From Candidatus Eiseniibacteriota bacterium (lineage in GTDB: Bacteria; Eisenbacteria; RBG-16-71-46; SZUA-252), in NCBI GenBank assembly GCA_031370645.1, contig JANMQV010000060.1:1-37809 (forward strand): DNA of 37,809 bases, read 5' to 3'. The position numbers and the translations under genes were made by a program. This document shows, piece by piece, positions 1 to 17,891 of this stretch (position 1 is the first letter of the stretch; every line of letters begins with the position of its first letter). A model generated the notes under the pieces. That model was not told the origin of the DNA and searched no databases. It saw only the letters and a program-made list of their open reading frames with translations.

Positions 1-726
1 CGCCACCGCGCCGTATGCCTGACGCGTGAAGACGTCGCCGAGCGCCTGAAGCGGGCTTCGGTCCTTCCAGAGAAGTCCCGCACCTTCCGCAACGCGCCAC
101 GGAACGATGAGCGCCGGCGTGAGCCCGACGGCAAACCAGGCCGCGCCGTGCGCGAGGCGGCGCCACGCGAACCGGCGTCCCAGCACCCAGCCCGCGAGCA
201 CGATGGCGGGTGCTGCCAGCGTCTGATGCGAGAGAAATGCAAGACCGGCCGTGAGCCCGAAGAGCGCGTCGGCGCGAATTCCGGCGGTGCGCGCGGCTCG
301 CGCGTTTCGAGCGGCGAGGAGCATCGCCAGGAACGCGACCGCGGCCAGTCCGTAGACTTCCGCTTCCACGGCGACGTGCCAGAGCGGCGTCGAGAGCGCG
401 AAGAGCGCCGCCGCCACGCCGGCCGCGACTCGGCCGGCGCCGAATCGGCGGGCCACGAGATAGAGCAGTCCGACCGCCGTCGCCGCCAGGAGCGCTGAGA
501 GAGCGTTCACGCGCCAGGCGAGCGATCCAACCGGGATGACGGAGGCGATGTGGGCGAGAAGGGTCCAGAGGGGATATCCGGGGGGATGAGGTACGCCGAG
601 CGACTCGGCGGCGAGCAGAAGCTCGCCGCGGTCCCCCGCACCGACGCCGGGCGCCAGCGTGCGTGCGTAGAGCACTCCGGCGGCAGTCGCCGCGAAGAGG
701 GCTTCTCCCGCCATGGTCCGGCGCAT
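1..726 (-). CDS. DUF2723 / TMEM260-like membrane glycosyltransferase (GT-C type), 3' end runs off the window
   Basis: Absent from the ORF track. Manual translation from ATG 726 (GGGGG RBS-like element 7 nt upstream) is open to base 1: MRRTMAGEALFAATAAGVLYARTLAPGVGAGDRGELLLAAESLGVPHPPGYPLWTLL...RVNALSA...LWHVAVEAEVYG... The D-x-GE, GxPHPPGYPL, RVN and AVEAEVY motifs are characteristic of DUF2723, with multiple hydrophobic helices. Confidence 0.88.
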   Translation of the reverse strand, partial: MRRTMAGEALFAATAAGVLYARTLAPGVGAGDRGELLLAAESLGVPHPPGYPLWTLLAHIASVIPVGSLAWRVNALSALLAATAVGLLYLVARRFGAGRVAAGVAAALFALSTPLWHVAVEAEVYGLAAVAFLAMLLAARNARAARTAGIRADALFGLTAGLAFLSHQTLAAPAIVLAGWVLGRRFAWRRLAHGAAWFAVGLTPALIVPWRVAEGAGLLWKDRSPLQALGDVFTRQAYGAVA

Positions 727-756
727 GCTATTTCCCCCGTTCGACCGTGCTCCCTG

Positions 757-800
757 AAAACGGTGGAGCGAGGCGGGGTTCCCTCCCCACCTCGCCGCCG
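757..800 (-). terminator. Intrinsic terminator-like hairpin downstream of the pilin gene
   Basis: Minus strand GCGAGGTGGGG-agggaa-CCCCGCCTCGC stem, extendable by CGGCGG/CCACCG, followed by TTTT. The short U-tract suggests partial termination before the DUF2723 gene. Confidence 0.55.
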
Positions 801-842
801 CTCAGGTCCGCCGTGAGGCGGGTCCATCCACTGACGCTTTGA

Positions 843-1223
843 TCAGTACGACGAGTAGGCGTTCAGATTCGCCTTCGCGACGCCCGTCGTGGAGTTGTAC
901 TGCCAGCCGCCGGCGTTATCGATGCCCGCCGTCGTCTTCACAGCCAGCGAGTTGTTGACCGGTTCCTTCGGGACGCGGCCGTCGGCGAAGATCGTGCCGT
1001 CGAGCGTCGGGAAGGTGGCGCTGCCGTTGAGAGCGTTACGCGCGTACTGAATGGCGATCGCCGAACGAATCGCGCCCAACTGGCCCTTCAGCGTGGCGAC
1101 GCGCGCCTGCTCCCGCATGTCCTCGTACTTCGGGATCGCGACCGCGGCGAGGATGCCGAGGATCACGATCACGATCACCAACTCGATGAGCGTGAAGCCC
1201 GATTCCGAATGCTTCCGAACCAT
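843..1223 (-). CDS. Type IV pilin (MshA/GspG-like), 126 aa prepilin
   Basis: Class III signal MVRKHSESG|FTLIELVIVIVILGILAAVAIP with E5; strong RBS AGGGAGGT upstream of ATG 1223 (the ORF-track start at 1277 is over-extended); mature length 117 aa with no Cys. Confidence 0.95.
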   Translation of the reverse strand: MVRKHSESGFTLIELVIVIVILGILAAVAIPKYEDMREQARVATLKGQLGAIRSAIAIQYARNALNGSATFPTLDGTIFADGRVPKEPVNNSLAVKTTAGIDNAGGWQYNSTTGVAKANLNAYSSY

Positions 1224-1295
1224 GATGAAAACCTCCCTGTTCAACGGACCTGAGTGCCCAGCCCCCGCGGGCTGCATGGATGGCTACGAGTGAAA

Positions 1296-1324
1296 GATTC
1301 GGCTGTTTCGAACCCGATCTTTAG
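1296..1324 (-). promoter_or_regulatory. sigma28 (FliA/WhiG)-like promoter for the pilin gene
   Basis: Minus strand CTAAAG-N15-GCCGAATC in the pilC-pilin intergenic region, compared with consensus TAAAG...GCCGATAA. Confidence 0.6.
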
Positions 1325-1341
1325 TCCCCGAAATCGCGCCT

Positions 1342-2589
1342 TTAGTGGCGGAAGGCGCTCATGAGGTTCCAAAGAGGCAAGAAGACGGCCAAGGCGGTGA
1401 AGAGGATCCCGACCGCCATGACAACCAGGAGCACCGGCTCCAGGGCGGAGGAGAGGTTTTTGAGGGCGTAATCGACGTCCCTATCGAGATATGTGGCGCC
1501 CCGGGCGAGGAGTGTATCGAGCGCTCCGGTCTCCTCGCCGACCCCCACCAATTCGACTACCAGAGGCGGGAAAACCCGGCTCCCCCGGATCGGCTCGGTC
1601 AATCCCTGACCGGCCACCACTCCATCCCGCATCTTGTCGACATCGACTTCGGCCACTTTGTTGCCGAGCACCCCCCGCGCGATCGACAGCGCCTGGACGA
1701 CCGGAATACCGGCCGCGAGGAGCGCCGACAAAACGCGGATGAAGCGCGACACGATGAGCTTCTGCATGACCGGCCCGAAAATCGGCGCGCCGAGAATCCA
1801 GCCGTCGATGCGGGCCCTCCCGCCCGGTGTGCGCGACCAGAGAATCCAGGCCGTGACCGCCGCGACGATTCCGAAAAGTACGAGGAGGAACTGCGCTTCG
1901 AAGAAGTCGCTCACGCCGATCAAGACGCGCGTCGGAAACGGTAGGTCGGCGCCGAGTCCTTTGAAGAGGCTGGCGAAGCGCGGAAGGACGAACTTCACGA
2001 GCACGAGGAACGCGACCACGAGCTCGATGCAGATCACCATCGGATAGAAGGTGGCCGAGCGGAGCCGCTGATCGGTTTCCTCTCCGTATTCGAGAATGAT
2101 CGCCACACGGTCGAGCATCTGCGTGAGAAGACCGCTCTCCTCGCCCGCGTGGACGAGGCTCACATAGAGCTCGGGGAAACAGCGATCGTGGCGTGCCATC
2201 GCCTCCGTGAGCGTGCTTCCCTGGGAGACGTCGCTCACCACGGTGTCGATCGCCTCGCGGAGCGGAAGGCTCGTCGATTGCGCGCCAAGGAGCCCGAGCG
2301 CTGAAACGAGCGGAAGGCCCGCCTCGAGCATCGTCTCCAATTGCCGCGTGAAGAGGATGAGGTCGCGGCTCGAGACGCGCGGGGTGAAGAACGGGATCAC
2401 GAGGGGGCGGGACGCGGCGCCGACCGGCGACTTCGCGCCCGTTGCGGCCTCGCTCTTCGCCTCCAGGCGAATCGGGGTCAGTCCCCGCGCATGGATTTGG
2501 CCGATCGCTGCGTCGAGATCGGGAGCATCGAGAACACCCTGCTCGGCGCTCCCGGTCGCCGCGAGAGCGCGATAGTGGTAGGTCGCCAT
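1342..2589 (-). CDS. pilC: Type IV pilus / T2SS inner-membrane platform protein (PilC/GspF family)
   Basis: MATYHYRAL N-terminus; two T2SSF repeats (FTRQLETMLEAGLPL...AGEESG; ...GEETGALD...LEP); C-terminal AVFLPLWNL helix. Confidence 0.95.
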   Translation of the reverse strand: MATYHYRALAATGSAEQGVLDAPDLDAAIGQIHARGLTPIRLEAKSEAATGAKSPVGAASRPLVIPFFTPRVSSRDLILFTRQLETMLEAGLPLVSALGLLGAQSTSLPLREAIDTVVSDVSQGSTLTEAMARHDRCFPELYVSLVHAGEESGLLTQMLDRVAIILEYGEETDQRLRSATFYPMVICIELVVAFLVLVKFVLPRFASLFKGLGADLPFPTRVLIGVSDFFEAQFLLVLFGIVAAVTAWILWSRTPGGRARIDGWILGAPIFGPVMQKLIVSRFIRVLSALLAAGIPVVQALSIARGVLGNKVAEVDVDKMRDGVVAGQGLTEPIRGSRVFPPLVVELVGVGEETGALDTLLARGATYLDRDVDYALKNLSSALEPVLLVVMAVGILFTALAVFLPLWNLMSAFRH

Positions 2590-2592
2590 CGG

Positions 2593-4302
2593 CTACCGGC
2601 CCGCGTCGGTCGCTTGGCTGTCGACGAGGGCGGCGTCGCGGGACGTGATGCGGAGCACCTCCTCGAGCGTGGTGAGCCCCTTCGCCGCTTTTCGTGCCGC
2701 GTCCTCCACGAGGAGCTGCATGCCGCCGCGCCGCGCGGCCCGGGCCAGTTCCTCGACCGGAGCGTGCGAGGCGATGAGCGAACGGATCTCCTCGGAGATG
2801 TCGAAGACTTCGTAGATGCCGATCCGCCCCTTGTACCCGGTGTCTCCGCAGGCGCGACAGCCGGCCGCTTCGAAGAAGGTCCCCTTCCCCCGCGGCAAAC
2901 CGAGCGAAGCGAGGAGATCGTCGGGAGGCGTCACGGGGCGCCGGCACTTCTCGCAGACGCGGCGAAGGAGCCGCTGCGCCACGACGCCGTTCAGCGCCGA
3001 GGCGAGGAGGTAGGGCGCGATCTGCATGTCGAGAAGGCGCGGAATCGCGGCGACGGCGTCGTTCGTGTGGAGCGTGGAGAAGACGAGATGCCCGGTGAGC
3101 GCCGAGCGAACGGCGATCTCGGCCGTGTCGTTGTCGCGGACCTCGCCAACCAGGATCACGTCGGGATCCTGGCGGAGAAGCGCGCGGAGGCCGCGCGCGA
3201 AGGTGAGCCCGATTTCGGGATCGACCTGGGTCTGGCGGACCGTCGTCACGTGATACTCGACCGGATCCTCCAGGGTGGCGATGTTTCGGTTCACCGTGTT
3301 GATCGTGTTGATGCAGGCGTAGAGGGTCGTCGTCTTGCCGCTTCCCGTCGGGCCGGTCACGAGCACGATGCCGTTCGGCCGCGCGACCATCCGTTCCACG
3401 AGCGCGAGCGGCTCGGGGGGGATGCCGAGATCGGCGAGGCCCCGAAGCGGCGAGGAGAGATCGAGAATTCGAAGCACCACGTTCTCGCCGTGGATCGTCG
3501 GAAAGGTCGAGACGCGGAGATCGAATTCCTTCCCCGCCGCGCTCGTCCGGATGCGGCCGTCCTGAGGGAGCCGCCGTTCGGAGATATCGAGCGACGCCAT
3601 CACCTTGATGCGCGACACGACCGACGCGTAGAGCGTCTTCGCCTGGGTTGCGACTTCGCGAAGCTGACCGTCCACGCGAATCCGGATTCGGAACGACGCC
3701 TCCTCGGGCTCGATGTGGAGGTCCGAGGCTCCTTCGCGCACGGCCTGTTCGATGAGGGCGTTCACGAAGCGGATGATCGGGCCGTCTTCTTCGGGGCGCG
3801 CGGCCACCGCGGCGGCCGCCTGCTTCAACGCCGCCTGCTGGCGGACGATCGAATCGAGTCCGCCGGAGGCCGGCGTGTAGCGGTCGATCGCCTCGCGGAT
3901 CTGAGAGCCCGCCGCCACGACGACATCGACGTCGAGCCCGGTTGTCAGACGCACTTCGTCGCGCGCCACCACGTCGAGCGGGTCGGCCATCGCGACGGTG
4001 AGCGTGTTTCCGATCTTGAAGAGGGAGACGATCTGGTACTGGCGAGCGACGCGCTCGGGGACGAGCCGCACGATCTCGGGTTCGAGAACGTAGGTCGAGA
4101 GGTCCATCCGAGGCACGCCGAGTTGCTCTTCGTAGTAGTCGAGGATCGCGTTCTCGGAGACGAGCTCGAGGCGAAGGAGGACTTCGCGAAGGGTGGCGCC
4201 CGTTCGGCGCTGCTCCTCGAGCGCGCGCGAAAGCCCCGCGGACGTGAGGTGTCCCTGCTCGACGAGGCACTGTCCGAGCGGCTTTCGTCCTCCGGAATTC
4301 AT
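2593..4302 (-). CDS. pilB: Type IV pilus assembly ATPase (PilB/GspE/MshE family) with N-terminal MshEN domain
   Basis: ASDLHIEP, ERRLPQDGR, Walker A GPTGSGKTT, Asp box TLEDPVEY, LRQDPDVILVGEVRD, His box TGHLVFSTLH, Zn site CEKC...CRAC; RBS AAGGAGG. Confidence 0.95.
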   Translation of the reverse strand: MNSGGRKPLGQCLVEQGHLTSAGLSRALEEQRRTGATLREVLLRLELVSENAILDYYEEQLGVPRMDLSTYVLEPEIVRLVPERVARQYQIVSLFKIGNTLTVAMADPLDVVARDEVRLTTGLDVDVVVAAGSQIREAIDRYTPASGGLDSIVRQQAALKQAAAAVAARPEEDGPIIRFVNALIEQAVREGASDLHIEPEEASFRIRIRVDGQLREVATQAKTLYASVVSRIKVMASLDISERRLPQDGRIRTSAAGKEFDLRVSTFPTIHGENVVLRILDLSSPLRGLADLGIPPEPLALVERMVARPNGIVLVTGPTGSGKTTTLYACINTINTVNRNIATLEDPVEYHVTTVRQTQVDPEIGLTFARGLRALLRQDPDVILVGEVRDNDTAEIAVRSALTGHLVFSTLHTNDAVAAIPRLLDMQIAPYLLASALNGVVAQRLLRRVCEKCRRPVTPPDDLLASLGLPRGKGTFFEAAGCRACGDTGYKGRIGIYEVFDISEEIRSLIASHAPVEELARAARRGGMQLLVEDAARKAAKGLTTLEEVLRITSRDAALVDSQATDAGR

Positions 4303-4350
4303 GGCGATCCCCTCCTTGCGGCCGCGCGGATGAGCGGGCTGTCGGATGGG

Positions 4351-4379
4351 TTATCGGCCGAGGGGAGGGGGTTCTATAG
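4351..4379 (-). promoter_or_regulatory. sigma28 (FliA/WhiG)-like promoter upstream of pilB
   Basis: Minus strand CTATAG-N15-GCCGATAA: a perfect sigma28 -10 octamer with the same spacing as the pilin promoter. Confidence 0.65.
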
Positions 4380-4429
4380 CGACCGGGGTTCGGGGACGCG
4401 AGGCCCGCCGGCACCGGCCGGAAAGCGGT

Positions 4430-5587
4430 CTATCGCTGGAATTCGCTCGGGTCTGTCTCGGAGTTCTCGAGGTCGGGCGGAAGTTCCGGCTCCTGCTTGA
4501 TTTCCGGCTTCGCGTCGGAGCCGAGATCGGTGAGCGTCAGCTCGGTCCAGGAAAGGAGCGATCGGGGCGTGGCCGAAGCAGAGAGACCGGTCGAATCGGG
4601 CGCAAGCGCACCGGCGACCGTATCGGCGTGGAGGAGGCTATCGGCCTGCGCCGCTACCGCCACCGCGGCGGCGAGGAGGGTCGAGTCGGGTCGAGTCGTC
4701 AACGGCGCGCCCGACAGGAGGCTGTCGCTCTTCGCACTCCACGGCAGGCGTCGCATTTCCGCCTGGAAGACCGAACGGGCGAATCCGGTGATCGGCACGA
4801 CGCCATTTCGCCAGAAGGTCTGCGTCAGCACGAGCCGCTCGATGCCGGTCGAATCGTCGTTCGACGGCCAGCGATCCGTGCCGTAGCGGCGCACGCGCTC
4901 CACCACGGCGGGTACGACGCGACGGCCCAGGCGAAGCGTATCGGGCCCTACCGAGGACTGGATCGGCCGGATGCTCGGATCGTACTCGAAGAGTTCGAAC
5001 GAACTGACTTCTCCGCCGGAACGAGCGTGGCGGGAGGCGCCGACCGGATATTCGTAGAGCTTGGCTCCGCTCATCGCCTGGTAGCGAACCAGCACGAAGC
5101 CATCTTCGTCGCGCGTCGCGGCGAGAGGGGCCGCGTCGTCGTCATTCGCCGAGTCGTCGGAGCCGGGGGAATCGCCCGTCTGCGAAGAGCCGCCGATCTG
5201 CGATCCGTCGCCGCCGGGAAGGAGGTCGGTCCCGCGCAGAGCCGCCGGCGCGAAGAGGCCACGCTCGATCCGCGGCATGCCGCGGCCGTCGGTCGTCTTC
5301 AGCTCGACCCAGAGCCCCCAGCGTCCCCTCCCGAGATCCTCCCTCGAGACGACGGCGACGCGCTGGTCGAATTCCCGGACGGAAGAGTGGCCGCTTTGGG
5401 TCCGCCCGTGGAACGAGACCCAGGTACCAACTAAATCGTGAGCGGGGAGGCGAAGCGAACGAAGCTTGAGGGTCTGCGCGGAAGCGGAAGGGATGCTCCC
5501 CGCCGCCACGGCGAACGCAAAGATGGCGAACGCCGCAACGCGGAGAAACCTAATCCCAGTGATTGATGTGACTGACGGCCTCGTCAT
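4430..5587 (-). CDS. Exported hypothetical protein (start uncertain)
   Basis: Signal-peptide-like RFLRVAAFAIFAFAVAAGSIPSASA|Q, beta-rich body, acidic low-complexity insert and a cluster of D(S/T) motifs. ATG 5587 overlaps the end of the upstream cytochrome gene by 38 nt. Confidence 0.75.
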   Translation of the reverse strand: MTRPSVTSITGIRFLRVAAFAIFAFAVAAGSIPSASAQTLKLRSLRLPAHDLVGTWVSFHGRTQSGHSSVREFDQRVAVVSREDLGRGRWGLWVELKTTDGRGMPRIERGLFAPAALRGTDLLPGGDGSQIGGSSQTGDSPGSDDSANDDDAAPLAATRDEDGFVLVRYQAMSGAKLYEYPVGASRHARSGGEVSSFELFEYDPSIRPIQSSVGPDTLRLGRRVVPAVVERVRRYGTDRWPSNDDSTGIERLVLTQTFWRNGVVPITGFARSVFQAEMRRLPWSAKSDSLLSGAPLTTRPDSTLLAAAVAVAAQADSLLHADTVAGALAPDSTGLSASATPRSLLSWTELTLTDLGSDAKPEIKQEPELPPDLENSETDPSEFQR

Positions 5588-6896
5588 AGTCGAAGTTCGG
5601 GCTCTGCTCCTTGGTGTGGCAACGGGCGCAGGCTTCCGGTCCCACCGATGAGACTCCGTCCGGATGCTTCGTTCCCATCCCATGGCAGTTCTCGCACTGG
5701 ACGTTTACGAGGTCGGGGGTCGACTGCTTCGAGATGAACCCGCCGGCCTGCCCCAGCCCCACGACGTGACACGTGAGGCACTCAGGCGTGGCGTCGCGCT
5801 CGGCTTTCACCAGCGTTTCGAACGCGCGCGCGTGGCTCTGCTTCAGGTACTTCTGGTATTCGACTTCGTGGCAGCGACGGCACGTCTTCTCGCCGAGATA
5901 GTGGTCCGCGGCCAACAGCTGCTGCGTCTGCGCTTCCTGCTGCGTCGCCTGCTGCTGGTTCTGCGTGGCGAACCGCCGGTTCAACTCGTCGCTGAAGGCG
6001 TCCACCTGCTGATTCATGGTTTCGTCGGCCGGCACCTTGTCGTCGAGCACGACGACTTCGCCGTCGTACGACGTGATCTTCCCGTCTTCCACGACGAGGT
6101 GGATGCCTGGAATGTGTTGCCCGCGCTCTCCTCCACGGACGTTGATGACGCCCTGCGTCTGGACGACGTCCTTGAAGAGCCCCACCTGGTGTCCGAAGAC
6201 CATGACGTCGATCCCCGGCACTTCCACCGTGAGCCGCTGCCCCTCGGGAAGTCCGAGGTGCGAGAGAACGATGATCACGTCGGCCTTCTTCCGGAGCTCC
6301 GGAATGAGCGTCCTCGCCGTCTCGATCGGATCGAGGATTTCGAGCGGCGATTCCGACGGCACCGTCCGGAACTTCGCGTCCTTCCAGATGAAGCCGGTGA
6401 ACGCGACGCGCACGGAGCCGATCCGCCGAATGACGTACGGCTTCACGAACGGCTTCTTGGTGCCGGCGAAGACGATATTCGCCGAGACGACGTCGATCTT
6501 CGTCTTCTTGAACGTGTCGAGCAGGTACTTCTGCCCGAAACTGAACTCACGTTCCCCCAGCGTGACGACGTCGTAATGCAACTTGTTCATCGTCTGGACC
6601 AGGAACTCGCTCTTCAGCGAATCCTGGACGCCGCCGAATCCGAAGAAGTCGCCCGCGTCCACGAGCAGACGGTTCGGGAACTTCGTCGCACCGATCTTGA
6701 GTTGACTCGCCCTCCGGGCGAGTCCGCCTAGCGGGTGCGCGTGTCAGCCACAGGGGGCGAGCTCCCCAAAGACGTCGGTGGTGCTTTGGAGGAAAATGTC
6801 GGTCGGGGCGCTCTTCCCTTGGAGCGACGCGGCAGCCGTAAGCATAAGCGCGACAACAAGAAAGAGCAGGTATCGAATTCGAGCCAGCGAAATCAC
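5550..6896 (-). CDS. Exported UshA-like (5'-nucleotidase-fold) selenoprotein fused to a cytochrome c554-like tetraheme domain; Sec encoded by TGA 6746-6744
   Basis: The frame of ORF 5550..6662 continues upstream across a single TGA: MISLARIRYLLFLVVALMLTAAASLQG KSAPTDIFLQSTTDVFGELAPCG-U-HAHPLGGLARRASQLKIGATKFPNRLLVDAGDFF. It supplies a signal peptide, the first metallophosphoesterase strand, and the CxU and GGLARRA motifs. Four CxxCH motifs (CRRCH, CLTCH, CENCH, CARCH) lie at the C-terminus. Start is GTG 6896 or CTG 6887; about 448 aa. Confidence 0.9.
6704..6724 (-). promoter_or_regulatory. Bacterial SECIS-like hairpin
   Basis: Minus strand GACTCGCCC-GGA-GGGCGAGTC: a perfect 9-bp stem with a G-starting apical loop 28 nt downstream of the in-frame UGA. 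Confidence 0.82.
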
Positions 6897-6915
6897 CCCC
6901 TCACGCGGTCAGATA

Positions 6916-6943
6916 GTATCGGCAACGTGACGCAAAACTATAC
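6916..6943 (-). promoter_or_regulatory. sigma28-like promoter upstream of the selenoprotein gene, overlapping a possible sigma70 promoter
   Basis: Minus strand TATAGTTT-N11-GCCGATAC matches 14 of 16 positions of TAAAGTTT-N11-GCCGATAA. The same TATAGT can also be a sigma70 -10 with TTGAAC (6966-6961) 18 nt upstream. Confidence 0.55.
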
Positions 6944-6975
6944 CCCGCTGCGCTTCCCGGGTTCAAGGCGGGAGG

Positions 6976-7016
6976 AAAAAAGAGGGGCGGGGAGGCGTTT
7001 CGGCCATCCCCACCCC
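6976..7016 (-). terminator. Rho-independent terminator of the HU gene
   Basis: Minus strand GGGGTGGGGA...TCCCCGCCCC stem followed by TCTTTTTT, 20 nt after the HU stop. Confidence 0.85.
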
Positions 7017-7035
7017 GAAATCGTCGATGGGGGGA

Positions 7036-7326
7036 CTACTTCTTGACGCGATCCTTGAGCGCCTTGCCGGCATGGAACGCCGGGAAGCGCGACGCGGCGA
7101 TCTTGATCTTTTCGCCGGTCTGCGGATTGCGCCCGTCGCGAGCCTTCCGCTTGCGGGTTTCGAAAGTGCCAAATCCAGTGATCTGGACCTTCTTGCCCGA
7201 GATCAGCGCGGCCGCGATAACACCTTCTTTTCCGGGCGAGAAGATCATCTCGACAACGGAGCGCGCCTGACGGGAGGAAATGCTCGCCTTCTTCGCGATC
7301 ATGGCTACGAGTTCGGTCTTGTTCAT
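7036..7326 (-). CDS. hup: HU family DNA-binding protein
   Basis: MNKTELV...VQITGFGTFETRKRKARDGRNPQTGEKIKIAASRFPAFHAGKALKD; perfect RBS AAAGGAGGTGA. Confidence 0.97.
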   Translation of the reverse strand: MNKTELVAMIAKKASISSRQARSVVEMIFSPGKEGVIAAALISGKKVQITGFGTFETRKRKARDGRNPQTGEKIKIAASRFPAFHAGKALKDRVKK

Positions 7327-7359
7327 GTCTGTCTCACCTCCTTTCGAAGAACGAGGCGT

Positions 7360-7388
7360 ACGCTACGCCGCACCCTGGGGAGGGTCAA
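7360..7388 (-). promoter_or_regulatory. sigma70-type promoter for HU
   Basis: Minus strand TTGACC-N17-TAGCGT just upstream of the RBS. Confidence 0.65.
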
Positions 7389-7421
7389 GGGGATTCACCG
7401 TCCGTGTGCGGGTTTTGGGCG

Positions 7422-10400
7422 TCAGCGGAGCTGGTCGATTCCGCCGAAGCCGCGGAGCCCGCGAGACCCCTGCTCGTAGTAGACCTCGGGAAGATTCTTC
7501 ACGTTGATCTTGAAGTAATACTCCTTCGTGTCGCCCGAGATGCTCCGAGTGAACTGCGCCTGCCAGCAGTGGAGGTCGCGCGTGATGCTGAAGTTCTGGG
7601 AGACGAGGCGCACGGCATGACCGGTGATGACGCCAGCCCGATCCTTGATGTCGGCGCGAAGGTCCGCCTGCGCAGCATATTCCACGTGCCAGTTGCGAGA
7701 CAGGTTGAGGCTCAGGAAGCTATTCGCGCGCTCCGTCGATGCCCACCGTTGGTACCCCCCGCCCGTCAGATTCCGGGCGCGGGAGCCGTCATAGGCGACG
7801 GAGAGTGTCAGGTTCCAGGGGAGCCCAGAGTCGGCCGTGCCGGGACGGAGCGGGTCCCCGAGCGCCCCGGCGAAGCCGCTCCCCACCACCCCGGCGGCAA
7901 CGGCTGGATCGCCGGCGTTCGCCTGGTCCACGGAAGCGACCGAGCGGCCCGTCAGCGTGAAGCCGGTCGAGGCGCTGAAGGAGAGGAGCCGACGGTCGTA
8001 CGGATTGTGGAGGAATCTGAACGAAAAATCGCTTCGCGGCGTGGGGGCCACGCGGAGCGTCGTCGAAAGATCGGAGAGCGGCTTTCTCCCGACTTTCTCG
8101 GCCAGGAAGTCGTAGGAGCCGGAGGTGTTCATCTGGATGAAGTTGTTGATCACCTTCGGCTGCTGCGCGTCGCCCCATTTCAGATGCAGATCGTTTCGCA
8201 GCGAGAATTGAAGCGAGCGTTGCTCACTGGCGCTGATCGGTGCAATCCCACTCACGCCGCCGAAGCGCGGAGCCAGCACACCTGAGGGTGTGCGGTAGAA
8301 GAGGCTCGGGGAGGAGGGCTGGTACGCGAAGGTGACCGACGGCGTCACGACGTGCCGGAGCGCGCGAAGTGGTCCGAGGGGATGGCGGAACGTGCCGAAG
8401 ATCGCCGTGTTCACGCCGGCGCTCCCGCGCCAGACGCCCGCTCGCTGATTTCGATTCCCCGCCTGATCGCGCGTCGTGAACGCCTCGCTGTAGTCCATCC
8501 GGGTCGATAGCCCCAGGAAGCCGAGCGCCCGCCTCTGATCCGTGAGCGAAACGTCGTGGCGCGCGGCCGTGCGTGCATCGATCACCGAGTCCTGCCCGCC
8601 GCCCGTCGAGTCCGCGGGAATCGAATTCACGTACTGATTTCGCTGGCTGACGACGCTGGAGGAGAACGCCACCAGCGTCTGCGAGAGCCACGGCAGGCGA
8701 GCCGGTTCCTTTCCCCGCGCCAGGTGTCCCAGCGGCCGCGCCGAGAGTCGGAACGATGCCGACGGCAATTGCTGCTCGATGCGAAGCCCGAACGGCTCGG
8801 GGTCGAGGTCCTGATTCCGGAGGAGCCCGATGTTCAGCGTCGAACTCGGCCACGTGCGATCGAGCGAGAAACTCGAACGGAGGTTTCGCTGCACCCGAAC
8901 CGAGACCGGCCGTCCGAGGTTCGCGTCGCGGTAGTACGAGGAGGAGTTCGTGAGATTCGCGAGGCCGCGAACCGTGAATCCAGGTGCCAGCGTCTGGAAG
9001 TGGCTCCCCTGGAGATCCCACGCCGACTGCTGGAACGTCGGACCGAGCGAGCGCTGATAGGAGCCGCTCAGCTGCCCTTGGAACTCGTAGAGCTTGTGGT
9101 AGCGGACCTGGCCGTGACCCACCCAGCGCGCGGCCTGGTAGTAATCGCCCCACCCGGTCGCGTCGACATAATCGTTCATCGCCCAGTAGTAGCCGAGATT
9201 CCGAATGAACTTTCCTCCGGCGCTCGACGATCCGAACTCCACCTGGGGCAATTGGAAGCCCGAATGCCGCCCCGACTTGATCGGAAAGATGTAGAACGGA
9301 AGCGCCAAGAGCGGGATGTTCTTGAAGTAGAAGACGACCGGTTTCGCCACGACCTTGTCGCGGAGAACGAGGCGCATCTTGGAAGAGCCGAAATGGAAGT
9401 GCGGCTCCGGGAGATCGCAGGTCGTATAGGTGCCCTCCCGCACGTTGAAGATGTTCTCCGAAACGCGCCGCACCTCGTGTCCGGCGAAGTAGCCGCGATC
9501 GTAGGTCGTCCGCCCGGCGTAGACCGTCCCTCGCCGGATGGCGAGGTCGTAGGTCATCGTCTCGCCGACGATCCGGTCCTTCCCGTCCTGGAGCACCGGC
9601 TCCCCGTCGGCGCGCATCTTCTGGGAACGCGCGTCGAAGTGGACGCGGGTCGCCTGGAGATTCATCTCCTTGTAGGTCACGTCGGCGGTGCCGAGCACGT
9701 CCACGAGGCGCGTCTCCACGTCGTATTCGATCCGCTGCCCTCGGTACCGGATATGGTCGAGCTTCGCCGCCGCCGCCGTGTCCCCCTCGGCCGCGAGGTA
9801 GTACGTCCCCTCGCTTCGGCCGAGCACCGTCGCGCGCCGCGGCTTTCCGTCTTCGAAGCCGACGCGGATCGTGTCGCCGCTCGCCACGTTCCGGCCCCCT
9901 TCGGCGCTGTCGGTGGAGGCGGGCCAGTAGAGGCTCTTCGCGTTCCCGACGATGAACGCCTCCCGCGCCTCGTCGTTTTCGAGGAAGAGCGTGATCGTAT
10001 CGCCGCGAGCCATGTTCCGCTCTCCACGCCCGGTCGCGGTCCGCTCCTCGTAGTCCACGGAGGCGTTCGGCCGCATCTGGAGCGACGCGATCCGGCCGTC
10101 GTGGAACCGGACCTCCATGCTGTCGCCCCGCGCGATCCCCTCAGGGCTCACGGCGGCCGGGTTCCCGACCAGGAGCGCCCGGTCTTCGCTCCGGAAGAAC
10201 GAGGCGGCCTCGCTTGTCGCGTGAAGACTGTCGCGGTCGATCCGCACCGTTCCCACGGCGAAGACTCGGTTTCGAGAGTTGTCGAAGCGCAGCGTGTCGG
10301 CCGCGATGTTGGTCGCCCGTCCGTCCTTTTCGACGAGTATCAGGCTCGGCGATTCCTCGGCCCACGCATAGTCGGCGCGGCGGTCGTAGCGGATTCGCCC

Positions 10401-15007: not shown

Positions 15008-16582
15008 CTATCCGCGCGGGACCAGCGTGGCCACCGGAAGGATCATCTCGTCGAGCGAAATCCCTCCGTGCTGGAAGGAGCCGCGGTAGCGGTTCTCGTA
15101 CTCGTGGAATTTCGTGGGATAGATGAAATAGAAGTCTTCTTTGGCCACGATGTAGTGCTTGTTGAGGGAGTCGGCCGGAAGGCGGAAGCGCGACGGGTCC
15201 TTCACATGCACGGCGGCCCGCGCATCGCAGCCGAGATTCATGCCGTACTTGAACCGGAGATTCGTGGAGGTCTCCCGGTTCCCGTACACGAGCGAGGAGC
15301 GCCGGCTCAAGACCGCCCCATGATCGGTCGTGACGATGACGACGCCATCCTGCTTCGAAAGCCACTTGAGGGCGTCGAAAAGCGCCGAGTGATTGAACCA
15401 CGAGCGCATGACCGATCGGAACGCCGACTCGTCCGGAGCCAGCTCTTTCAGCAGATCGGACTCCGACCGGCCATGGGTGAGCATGTCGAGAAAGTTGAAG
15501 ACCATGGCGACGAGCGGAATGTTCTGGAACGTGACGACGTTTCGCCGCACGTGGCTCGCCTCCTCCACATTCGAGACCTTCAAGTACTTGAGTCCGGCCG
15601 CGAGCGAGACCCCGAGCCGCTCGAGGAGTTTCTCCAGTAATTGCCGCTCGAATCGGTTCTTGCTTCGCTCGTCGGCCGATATCTCCTGCCAAAACTCCGG
15701 AAACTGCTTCTGGATCTCCTCCGGGTAGAGCCCGCTAAAGATCGCGTTTCGGGAATAGGGCGTCGACGTGGGGAGAATGGAGATCTGGTGATCGAGCGTG
15801 ATGTCGAAGTAGGGCCGGAGAATCGGCTCCACGGTGAGCCAGTGGTCGAGCCGCATGCAGTCGATCACCACAAGCGTGACGCGCTTGCCCGCCCGGAGGT
15901 GCGGCGCCACCCATCGTTCCACCACGTCCACGGAGAGCGGCGGGCGATCAGCCGGGTCGGCGTCGGGGCGCGTCCACGAGTGGTAGTTCGCTTCGACGTA
16001 CTGACAGAATTCGACGTTCATTTCGCGGCGCTGATCGGCGTGCGCCTGGCGAAGACCCGCGTCGCCGGCGGCGTCGAGTTCCACGTCCCATTGAGCGCTC
16101 CGCGTGTGGATCTCGATCCAGCGACGCCAGTCGGGCGCGGGACCGGCCTCGGCTCTCGCCTTCGCCAGTTCCGCCACGTAGTCGCGAGCGAGTCGCGTCT
16201 CGTGGAGCCGATCGCCATCCAGCAGTCGCTTCAGCGCGAGAAAGATCTGCATTGGACGCACCGGCTTCAGGAGGTAGTCGCTGATCCGCCTCCCGATCAC
16301 CTCATCCATCAGCGACTCCGCCTCGTTCTTCGTCACGAGAATCACGGGAAGGCCGGGGTCGTGCTCCTTGATCAATTCGAGCGTTTCGAGCCCGCCTCGG
16401 CCCGGCATCGATTCGTCGAGCAGGACCGCATCGAACTTCTCCCGGAGCGTCGAGGCAAGCGCATCCTCGCCATTCGAGACGGGCGTGACCCGGTACCCCT
16501 TCTCCTCGAGGAAGAGGATGTGGGAACGGAGGAGCTCGATCTCGTCGTCGGCCCAGAGGATTTTTCGTTCGTTCGCGGCCAT
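15008..16582 (-). CDS. porX: PorX-family response regulator (REC + PglZ/alkaline-phosphatase-superfamily domain)
   Basis: KILWADDEIELL...VLLDESMPG receiver domain; VIDCMRLDHW, SILPTSTPYSRNAIFSG, NFLDMLTHGR, TTDHG, FQHGGISLDEM; directly upstream of tsaE, as in Bacteroidota. Start taken at ATG 16582. Confidence 0.9.
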   Translation of the reverse strand: MAANERKILWADDEIELLRSHILFLEEKGYRVTPVSNGEDALASTLREKFDAVLLDESMPGRGGLETLELIKEHDPGLPVILVTKNEAESLMDEVIGRRISDYLLKPVRPMQIFLALKRLLDGDRLHETRLARDYVAELAKARAEAGPAPDWRRWIEIHTRSAQWDVELDAAGDAGLRQAHADQRREMNVEFCQYVEANYHSWTRPDADPADRPPLSVDVVERWVAPHLRAGKRVTLVVIDCMRLDHWLTVEPILRPYFDITLDHQISILPTSTPYSRNAIFSGLYPEEIQKQFPEFWQEISADERSKNRFERQLLEKLLERLGVSLAAGLKYLKVSNVEEASHVRRNVVTFQNIPLVAMVFNFLDMLTHGRSESDLLKELAPDESAFRSVMRSWFNHSALFDALKWLSKQDGVVIVTTDHGAVLSRRSSLVYGNRETSTNLRFKYGMNLGCDARAAVHVKDPSRFRLPADSLNKHYIVAKEDFYFIYPTKFHEYENRYRGSFQHGGISLDEMILPVATLVPRG

Positions 16583-16586
16583 GAAA

Positions 16587-17891
16587 TCAGGAGGTCCGGC
16601 CGTCGGGCGGAGACGGCGGCAAGGGAAGCGTGACGACGACGGTGGTGCCGCGGCCGGGAGCTGTCTCGGCGATGGCGATGCGGCCCCGATGGTACTCGTG
16701 CACCACGCGCCTCGCAAGCGCGAGGCCCAAGCCCCAGCCGCGCCGCTTTGTGGTGAATCCGGTGTCGAAGGCGTGACGGCGCTCTTCCGGCGTCATGCCG
16801 CGGCCGTTGTCGGCGACGCGGAGTTCGACGGCGCGCTCCTCGCGCTTCCATGCGACCGAAACCGATATCTTCCCGGCGGGCTTGTCGCTTGCGTCGAGCG
16901 CGTTCTTCAACAGATTTTCGACCACCCATTCGATCAACTGCGGATGGACCGCCACGCGGGGCGCCGGTTCGTATCGCTCCTCGATCTGGACCGACTGTCC
17001 GAGGTGCGGGAGTCGGTGGCGGAAGTAGGAAACGGTACCCGAGACGATCGTGGAGAAGTCGGCGAGTTCGAGCGACGGAGTCGAACCGACTTGGGCGAAG
17101 CGCGACGCGATCTTGTCCAGTCGATCGAGATCGCGCGTCATTTCGTCCACCACCGTGCTGACTTTCTCCGGCGCCAGCGTGCCGGCGGCGACCTGCTCTT
17201 TCAGCAATCCGGTCCAGCCGAGAAGCGAGGAGAGCGGCGTCCCGAGCTGGTGCGCGGTCTCCTTCGCGAGCGCGGCCCAGAGCGAGCGCTGCTCTCCCGC
17301 GAGAAGGCTCCGCCACCCCGCGAAGCCGAAGAGGAGGAGTCCCAAGACGACGCCGAATTCGAGATACGGGATCCACCGCAGGCGCGAGACAAGGGGCGGC
17401 TCGCCGTAGTGCACGTAGCCGAGGATGTCGGGATGCCCGATTCGAATGATCGGAATCGGCTCGTTCACCTGATCGAGGTCGGCGACGATATCTTGAAGTC
17501 GCGCCAGTTGAGGCGCGATGACACCGGTCGTGTCGGCGATGACGATCAGCGAGTCGGGAACGTCGGTCGTCTGGATTCCCACGTGCCGCCAGGCGCGAGG
17601 AATTCCCTTCGTGTCGGTCAGGATGAGGGGGAAGTTGATGTTCTGAACGACATCGCGATAGATCGGCTGCATTTCGGGAGATTCCGCCGCCTCGAACGTG
17701 GCCACCGCGAAGAACCGGGCGAGGACCGTGCAGAGGCTCCGCGCTTCCGAGTTCAGGCTGCCGATGACGTAGTTCGAATGCGCGACGAGCGCCATCATGA
17801 GGAGCACGATGGCGAGAAAGAGGTAAACCCGGAACGAGATCGGGCGAAGCGGTCGGCCCGCTCGAGCGGGATCGGCGGGGCGCGCGGTCAT
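16587..17891 (-). CDS. Membrane sensor histidine kinase
   Basis: Two TM helices flank a periplasmic domain; H-box AKETAHQLGTPLSSL, N-box ENLLKNALDA, G1 DNGRGM, F/G2 GFTTKRRGWGLGL. Confidence 0.95.
   Translation of the reverse strand: MTARPADPARAGRPLRPISFRVYLFLAIVLLMMALVAHSNYVIGSLNSEARSLCTVLARFFAVATFEAAESPEMQPIYRDVVQNINFPLILTDTKGIPRAWRHVGIQTTDVPDSLIVIADTTGVIAPQLARLQDIVADLDQVNEPIPIIRIGHPDILGYVHYGEPPLVSRLRWIPYLEFGVVLGLLLFGFAGWRSLLAGEQRSLWAALAKETAHQLGTPLSSLLGWTGLLKEQVAAGTLAPEKVSTVVDEMTRDLDRLDKIASRFAQVGSTPSLELADFSTIVSGTVSYFRHRLPHLGQSVQIEERYEPAPRVAVHPQLIEWVVENLLKNALDASDKPAGKISVSVAWKREERAVELRVADNGRGMTPEERRHAFDTGFTTKRRGWGLGLALARRVVHEYHRGRIAIAETAPGRGTTVVVTLPLPPSPPDGRTS

Follow-up and report, generated by a model that had tools for sequence, protein, structure and literature searches.

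A selenocytochrome operon and a type IV filament cluster, probably two independent units, lie side by side in one family of Candidatus Eisenbacteria

Does the run of envelope genes at one end of an Eisenbacteria contig encode a single surface module, in which a pilus works together with a selenocysteine-containing cytochrome, or two independent units that have come to lie next to each other? The question is raised by positions 1–6975 of contig JANMQV010000060.1 (assembly GCA_031370645.1), whose 37,809 nucleotides (nt) are together referred to as the window; the window is the entire contig C83 of a metagenome-assembled genome (MAG) of 3.0 Mb in 247 contigs (95% complete), whose relatives carry the label Candidatus Eisenbacteria. 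Six envelope or pilus genes and the HU gene upstream of them lie on the minus strand, every one, as do the regulatory elements described with them. In order of transcription, the six encode a selenoprotein fused to a tetrahaem cytochrome domain (5550–6899; hereafter the selenocytochrome), an exported protein termed HYP (4430–5587), the assembly ATPase PilB (2593–4302), the platform protein PilC (1342–2589), a major prepilin (843–1223) and the 5′ part of a GT-C glycosyltransferase that is cut by the contig end (1–726). A first-pass annotation of this DNA had described six co-oriented genes following a strong HU terminator, and had proposed for them an undescribed surface module in which a minimal pilus works with the cytochrome. 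All of its gene calls held, as did the 38-nt overlap of HYP, whose ATG falls within the cytochrome gene, and the 3-nt gap between pilB and pilC; the joint working of pilus and cytochrome fared less well once the locus was compared across genomes.

On the evidence below, the window probably holds two independent units which are juxtaposed only in one Eisenbacteria family. The first would comprise the cytochrome gene and HYP, both driven by a conserved promoter of the sigma-70 type that directly follows the HU terminator. Its cytochrome would be an exported redox enzyme in which a metallophosphoesterase domain of the UshA/SoxB kind, now degenerate, is fused to a c554-like domain that transfers electrons through four haems; HYP, whose gene overlaps that of the cytochrome, would be exported too and resembles LolA and RseB in its predicted fold. 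The second is a type IV filament cluster, of which the window carries the genes for a PilB that probably senses cyclic di-GMP (c-di-GMP), for PilC and the major pilin, and for a GT-C enzyme of the TMEM260-like kind that most likely glycosylates this pilin; it would be transcribed from sigma-28-type promoters, like chemosensory genes elsewhere in what appears to be a flagellum-less genome.

Gene order was compared using the cytochrome as query, which returned 79 loci, 27 of them at ≥65% identity (the window's own family) and 52 at 31–39%, and the presence or absence of HYP, PilB, PilC, pilin and GT-C was scored by tblastn at E≤1e-5. Among the 27 close loci, HYP was detected in 26 (L026 stops at the cytochrome) and PilB likewise in 26; one, at L016, was a 26-residue match on the reversed strand and was not counted. 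In gene maps of these loci PilB was called 23 times, PilC 19 times, the pilin 16 times and GT-C 15 times, and the missing calls fall at contig ends. The genes upstream of the cytochrome are collinear as well, with a histidine kinase (HK), a PglZ-domain response regulator (RR-PglZ), TsaE, TsaB, AccD, FolC, LptD and HU keeping their order wherever the contig reaches, over ∼17 kb; HU itself is collinear in 22 of 27, and the remaining loci start later. Because this housekeeping run is collinear too, the shared order shows only that the region has not been rearranged within the family. Synteny between the selenoprotein gene and the pil genes in close relatives, whose absence the first-pass annotation would have counted against the module, was found, but it does not discriminate between one module and two units.

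The distant loci are more telling. Not one of HYP, PilB, PilC, pilin and GT-C was detected at any of the 52 (L036–L087); in 37 of them the sequence continues for 2 kb or more beyond the cytochrome. CBS (PALP+CBS) and then CGL, a pyridoxal phosphate (PLP) enzyme of Cys/Met metabolism, lie directly 3′ of the cytochrome in 27/52 (e.g. L063:10001–14200), where the cytochrome is often present as a tandem of selenocysteine and Cys forms; LptD is still upstream in 9/52. Three long records from the window's family contain the cytochrome, HYP, the pilus cluster, secretin, a response regulator, CBS and CGL in that order, and the same order runs through the window's own genome over contigs C83, C92, C220 and C244, with CBS and CGL at C244:12829–15371. 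Since CBS and CGL abut the cytochrome in the distant loci and lie past the pilus cluster in the family, the pilus block appears to sit inside an older cytochrome–CBS backbone. The simplest reading of these maps is that of an old backbone, LptD-HU...cytochrome-CBS-CGL, inside which HYP and a 13-gene pilus block would have come to lie in one family. The older linkage to cystathionine beta-synthase and gamma-lyase genes may also be the better pointer to the sulfur/selenium chemistry of the enzyme. Conversely, two distant genomes (L116 and L119) possess pilus clusters with homologous minor-pilin, NHL and PilM genes, and no cytochrome, HYP or GT-C gene was found nearby.

The two sets of genes also differ in the promoters that are conserved before them. 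The HU/IHF-family DNA-binding protein gene (7036–7326; PF00216, 100.7 bits) is an upstream neighbour outside the first unit, and its intrinsic terminator (6976–7016) consists of a GC hairpin of 10+3 bp followed by UCUUUUUU, with a folding energy of −28.2 kcal/mol and a z-score of −3.1, each hairpin in this study being compared with 200 shuffles. None of the shuffles was as stable (0/200), and the terminator is conserved in 23/23 aligned family loci. A consensus terminator scan detected neither this structure nor the hairpin after the pilin gene (described below), and both were recovered by folding. Between the terminator and the cytochrome gene, promoter scanning and alignment identified a sigma-70-type site, TTGAAC-N18-TATAGT (6937–6966), the only promoter-like site found in positions 1–7600, both hexamers of which are invariant in 23/23 loci.

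The pilus genes are preceded by sites of another kind. A sigma-28-type matrix was built from 31 sites of other genomes, and when the whole genome was ranked with it, the window's pilB site came first (30.1 bits) and its pilin site tenth (21.4 bits). The pilB site, CTATAG-N15-GCCGATAA at 4351–4379, was identified by spacer alignment and matrix, and its GCCGAT is invariant in 24/24 aligned pilB spacers; the pilin site, CTAAAG-N15-GCCGAATC at 1296–1324, stands in a conserved block of a 17-sequence spacer alignment. Both contain the conserved pair CT..AG-N15-GCCGA(T/A). The excerpted text of PMC12784957 gives the sigma-28 (FliA) promoter elements as −35 TCTAAAG and −10 GCCGATAA. Compared with the consensus in that excerpt, the CTAAAG and GCCGA(A/T) elements match and the spacer is one base longer; the setting differs from that of the FliA consensus promoters described there, in that pilus and chemosensory genes would be driven in a family without FlhA.

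A matching sigma factor is available, as the FliA/WhiG model TIGR02479 scored 260.3 against a cut-off of 189.6 in the window's own genome and was above cut-off in 38/41 family genomes. FlhA was above its cut-off in 0/41 family genomes, so the family apparently has no flagellum. Other matches to the pattern or the matrix in the same genome (on contigs C170, C20, C94, C231 and C220) lie 5′ of genes for CheA, for a PilT-like ATPase, for a regulator of the CheY type and for one more pilin-like protein. This distribution suggests that pili and chemosensing share a sigma-28 regulon in a family that lacks flagella, with sigma-28-type promoters placed before pilus and chemosensory genes in a family without the flagellar export gate. 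Similar patterns occur farther afield: in five more distant genomes, CTGAAGTC...GCCGATAA was found 151–182 nt 5′ of a gene of 657–694 amino acids (aa) near PilB-PilT-PilC clusters (5/5), and in L119 such a pattern precedes the cluster's first gene by 67 nt.

The second gene of the window's run, HYP, bears on the question as well, as it stands between the cytochrome and the pilus genes. It had no match in Pfam or NCBIfam; nevertheless it is a real gene, given that 16 orthologues could be aligned with 39 invariant columns and a signal peptide common to them. Alignment and model indicate export by way of a signal peptide, and a core rich in beta structure that is accompanied by two disordered linkers. 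HYP is narrowly distributed: a search of 1.84 billion representative proteins gave 45 matches at E≤1e-3, of which 22 reached E≤1e-30, and a HYP profile found no second match in its own genome. The weak full-length matches form a sister family (alignment A2), whose homology to HYP is supported by hhalign at a probability of 99.5% (E 6e-23). Three other families of the class carry it, in 79/89, 9/10 (one genome unpublished) and 3/3 of their genomes. The A2 profile also matches 32/40 genomes of the window's family; in the one checked by coordinates (G212, the record of L015) the match is HYP, and no match was found in the window's own genome at E≤1e-5.

The surroundings of the sister genes are of the housekeeping type. 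In the 12 loci examined (L142–L153), ftsY lies on one flank in 12/12, adjoining in 10 and one gene off in 2, with smc and selA beyond it; radC (radC/archease) lies on the other flank in 11/12, and no pilus gene was found within 9.5 kb in the 12 loci. In the window's own genome selA, smc and ftsY stand together at C131:97–7595, and the slot for a HYP-like gene is empty. To judge by these gene neighbourhoods, HYP therefore looks like a copy, moved to a new place and evolving fast, of an exported protein found across the class.

The structure predicted for HYP (mean predicted local distance difference test score, pLDDT, of 60, with core blocks mostly at 72–91) resembles the LolA/LolB/RseB fold. 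Foldseek searches with this model gave low TM-scores (0.25/0.40), and VIA-align comparison with RseB, MucB, LolA and LolB gave Z-scores of 8.0–8.8 over ∼150 residues at a root-mean-square deviation of 3.5–4.4, a level which the tool rates as middling/common. The model thus aligns with the open beta-barrels of LolA/LolB/RseB-MucB, but at an identity of 6–13% and the modest mean pLDDT just given, and unlike those barrels HYP has two long disordered inserts and no lipoprotein Cys. Could HYP then belong functionally to the pilus cluster, as a periplasmic or outer-membrane accessory of the secretin that was recruited when the cluster settled here? We regard this as quite improbable. It would agree with the occurrence of HYP at the cytochrome only where the pilus cluster is, with its fast evolution (32–76% identity across the family) and with a LolA/LolB-like fold, which is that of outer-membrane targeting factors; yet the gene overlaps that of the cytochrome and precedes the sigma-28-type promoter of pilB, and HYP is missing from comparable pilus clusters of other families, where its homologues sit beside ftsY and radC.

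The assignment of cytochrome and HYP to one unit and the filament genes to another has to be weighed against the view that selenocytochrome, HYP and pilus genes are co-expressed and act together, through redox input to pilus motility or adhesion or through electron transfer along or near the filament. Several observations weigh against independence. The adjacency of cytochrome and pilus genes is unbroken, without exception, in each family locus that reaches far enough, and the gene maps were drawn with a codon log-likelihood (codon-bias) caller trained on the window itself. The gap between HYP and pilB has no terminator-like structure (z +0.9), so read-through from the cytochrome promoter into pilB is possible. 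A GCCGAT element on the cytochrome side is kept in about half of the family, in an alignment read by eye and with diverged spacers, and could be a second, sigma-28-type start that co-regulates the cytochrome with the pilus. Lastly, in one of the 12 sister loci of HYP, and only there (L145; G157:C1:2283000–2302900), a 543-aa cytochrome-family gene lies five genes from the HYP homologue on the opposite strand.

Other observations weigh against joint action. The unbroken adjacency extends to the ∼17 kb of unrelated housekeeping genes and ends at the family, the pilus genes being absent from 52/52 distant cytochrome loci, and in other families HYP homologues are found in housekeeping surroundings. 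On the cytochrome side the element in question, GCCGATAC (6916–6923), lies 15 nt after TATAG and overlaps the sigma-70-type promoter as a possible weak sigma-28-type −10; the composite site TATAG-N15-GCCGATAC (6916–6942) scores 14.3 bits, its spacer is 1 nt shorter than those of the pil sites, and 30 genome sites in that spacing class exceed 15 bits. A loose sigma-28-like pattern was present in only 6/48 upstream regions of distant cytochrome genes, at scattered and inconsistent positions, these regions being 260 nt long and perhaps partly coding. The cytochrome-side site was not taken as strong evidence of co-regulation, because of its score of 14.3 bits and because no conserved counterpart precedes the distant cytochrome genes. 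The promoter motif which the first-pass annotation had seen in three of the spacers thus stands for pilB and the pilin, whereas before the cytochrome it is weak and a different, invariant promoter is found.

With synteny confined to one collinear family and differing conserved promoters on the two sides, we consider joint action improbable. A family-specific wiring of the inserted pilus or pseudopilus cluster to the selenocytochrome operon, in which the filament would export the enzyme (with or without HYP) to the surface or be deployed together with it, is likewise an unlikely reading; if true, a selenoprotein would have been built into a surface module for redox chemistry and adhesion that is specific to this lineage. 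We infer instead that each of the two units works on its own. This takes away a tempting connection of selenoprotein and pilus that the evidence does not support, and the locus illustrates how a contig end and lineage-wide collinearity can mimic a "module".

The selenocytochrome gene of the first unit contains a single in-frame TGA (6744–6746), read as selenocysteine in the motif APCG-U-H. Read through this codon, the protein matches NF041198 (UshA_like_PCGU, "UshA-like (seleno)protein") at 280.8 bits against a cut-off of 275, and in a six-frame search of the genome the match breaks at the TGA into 143.3 + 125.4 bits. The two halves of the fusion are matched by PF00149 (23.8 bits) and PF13435 (57.6 bits), and four CXXCH motifs lie in the c554-type haem region. 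By pattern match, 18 ortholog loci have TGA at the aligned column, as do 4 more that the pattern missed; in paralogues this column holds Cys. The window's own genome encodes selB (345.5 bits), selA (532.5 bits) and selD (353.7 bits), each above cut-off, as well as a tRNA-SeC detected by ARAGORN, for which two genes are listed in the assembly. Profile matches, in-frame TGA and selenocysteine machinery bear out the gene identities and the selenocysteine reading of the first-pass annotation. The epithet "undescribed" does not apply, as the selenocytochrome is a member of an already catalogued and curated family: UshA-like PCGU, with the motif CxU, is listed among known prokaryotic selenoprotein families in the excerpted part of a 2026 AEM review (PMC13188914). 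In comparison with NF041198, the curated cut-off is passed, P-C-G-U is encoded by way of TGA, the haem-binding C-terminal half lies within the model (positions 345–518) and the selenocysteine machinery is present in the genome; no trait was found that sets the protein itself apart, and the locus differs in the overlapping HYP gene 3′ of it, which is absent there in other Eisenbacteria families. The result is a clean anatomy of an UshA-like PCGU selenocytochrome locus in an uncultured phylum.

The canonical first motif of metallophosphoesterases is D-x-H. In the selenocytochrome this motif reads D-V-(F/Y/K), with the His replaced in all 20 aligned sequences (residues 40–53; 6744–6790), and is followed directly by the PCGUH loop; T40, D42, P49, C50, G51, U52 and H53 are invariant. 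Ordinary nucleotidase chemistry is doubtful given the replaced His and the loop directly after it, and the protein probably lacks the dinuclear active site of classical phosphoesterases. Joint structure prediction of the cytochrome (397 aa after the selenocysteine codon) with HYP residues 38–385 scored 0.00 in both runs, which speaks neither for nor against binding.

Two further features of the gene are less sharply defined. A stem-loop 3′ of the UGA (6684–6741, predicted fold) is a candidate bacterial selenocysteine insertion sequence (SECIS), with an apical 9-bp stem at 6704–6724 that lies 20 nt 3′ of the UGA; its folding energy is −34.7 kcal/mol but its z-score only −1.7, and 11/200 shuffles fold as well. 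The start is uncertain between GTG at 6899, which is annotated and not conserved in frame, and CTG at 6890; the CTG lies 8–10 nt after a GGAGG box and is invariant in 23/23 family loci (window 6888–6899), and may be the true, non-canonical start codon. As a side observation on the selenocysteine genes, the selD match (C103:5013–5936) has one in-frame TGA inside it, and SelD is probably a selenoprotein itself. Selenocysteine (PCGU) and Cys (PCGC) copies of the cytochrome were seen in tandem or close together in L040, L041, L042, L046, L047, L053, L058, L061 and L068.

The second unit extends beyond the window. In relatives with longer contigs, the GT-C gene is followed by genes for a GspH/FimT-like pilin, two proteins with N-methylation motifs, a PilX_N-NHL propeller protein and PilM; after two small genes of PilN/O size come those for a secretin and for a regulator of the CheY type. 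The off-contig part of the filament unit has this composition, with the two N-methylation-motif proteins as further minor pilins, and in the window's own genome the same genes continue the cluster on contigs C92, C220 and C244, with PilM on C220 and PilN/O-like genes and the secretin (PF00263) on C244. Prepilin peptidases (PF01478) were found on C62 and C234, and further PilB/PilT-type ATPases on C94, C156, C72 and C131, those on C94, C72 and C131 being PilT-like. The expectation that a pilus or adhesion system would have its missing parts encoded outside the window was therefore correct, and the description of the pilus as "minimal" was not: the contig end cuts a complete type IV filament cluster, of which the window holds the 5′ third.

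What class of filament does the cluster encode? The generic set is complete, with a T2SSE ATPase (PilB; PF00437, 445.7 bits), a T2SSF platform (PilC; PF00482, 175.5 bits), a prepilin with an N-methylation motif, a secretin and an A24 peptidase. Models for the type IVa pilus (T4aP) all fell below cut-off, namely PilB (TIGR02538, 595.9 vs 675.65), PilC (∼290 vs 700), PilM (123.1 vs 133) and PilQ (206.1 vs 284.35), as did those for the type II secretion system (T2SS), namely GspE (TIGR02533, 570.8 vs 630.25), GspF (348.4 vs 424), GspG (43.5 vs 88.85) and GspD (224.9 vs 351.35). As no equivalog model reaches its cut-off, the assignment stays at the level of the type IV filament, without a T4aP or T2SS subclass. 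Shared with T4aP and T2SS clusters are the ATPase, the platform, a prepilin with G/FTLIE, four minor pilins, PilM, the secretin and a peptidase encoded elsewhere; unlike in those clusters, there is no PilT gene in the cluster, the GT-C gene lies between major and minor pilins, an NHL propeller is carried on a PilX-like protein, the promoters are of the sigma-28 type, and PilM is 592 aa long in relatives. PilB has an N-terminal MshEN c-di-GMP-binding motif (PF05157, 77.6 bits), and its residues 8–60 match NF053729 (MshE-type c-di-GMP motif) at 47.3 bits against a cut-off of 38, from which pilus assembly is probably controlled by c-di-GMP.

The class matters to the relation between the units. 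Genes for substrates may be placed next to T2SS operons, and surface cytochromes of Shewanella depend on T2SS; the filament might accordingly be a T2SS-like pseudopilus with the cytochrome, HYP or both as its cargo. For PilC the best model is GspF (348 bits), the secretin is slightly closer to GspD than to PilQ (224.9 and 206.1), one minor pilin matches GspH, the major pilin is conserved to a degree that would suit a pseudopilin, and both cytochrome and HYP carry Sec-type signal peptides. We nevertheless think this very unlikely, since the cut-off is reached for neither type of system, PilM_2 is present, the PilX_N-NHL propeller suggests a tip adhesin, the sigma-28-type promoters are held in common with CheA, the CheY-like regulator and the PilT-like gene and so point to motility, and cytochrome orthologues elsewhere have no such neighbour. 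Two independent units, with a filament of the ordinary type IV kind in the second, account for the cluster better; its two uncommon features are the TMEM260-type GT-C gene and the sigma-28-type promoters.

The major prepilin (126 aa; PF07963, 35.7 bits, and TIGR02532) has a 9-residue leader followed by G/FTLIE, and its gene has GGGAGG 8 nt before the ATG at 1223. Identity across the family is 82–98% for the pilin, including the C-terminal AYSSY, compared with 68–94% for PilB and 50–89% for PilC; such conservation is unusual for a surface pilin. The idea of an electrically conductive pilin was set aside because the protein is a full-length prepilin and not a truncated one. A strong hairpin (796–767) with a short U run follows the pilin gene (756–796; identified by folding), either a terminator or an attenuator. 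Its GC stem is 12 bp long, its z-score is −3.5 and none of the shuffles was as stable (0/200); distant family members have a hairpin of different sequence at the corresponding position, which fits a conserved attenuator between an abundant pilin transcript and the genes for GT-C and the minor pilins.

The GT-C gene lies directly 3′ of the pilin gene in the window and in 15/15 ortholog loci that reach that far. The window holds its first 242 codons (PF11028, TMEM260-like, 84.4 bits), and where the gene resumes on C92 it shares 77% identity with the L012 ortholog; weak tetratricopeptide repeat (TPR) matches were found at the C-terminus. In the available part of its report (bioRxiv 10.1101/2020.04.19.049825), TfpW, an accessory of group IV pilin in Pseudomonas aeruginosa, is described as a GT-C enzyme that glycosylates pilin. 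The window's enzyme is like TfpW, as far as that part describes it, in being a GT-C-fold membrane glycosyltransferase encoded straight after the major pilin gene, and unlike it in belonging to another GT-C family, the TMEM260-like PF11028. By analogy, the window's enzyme most likely glycosylates the pilin, and a TMEM260-type GT-C beside a very conserved pilin is a candidate for a new pilin glycosylation system. No literature joining DUF2723 with pilin was found, and for Eisenbacteria with type IV pili the only work found was on Gemmatimonadota. At the head of the collinear housekeeping run, on the far side of the HU gene, a histidine kinase and a PglZ-domain response regulator occupy window positions 15008–17891.

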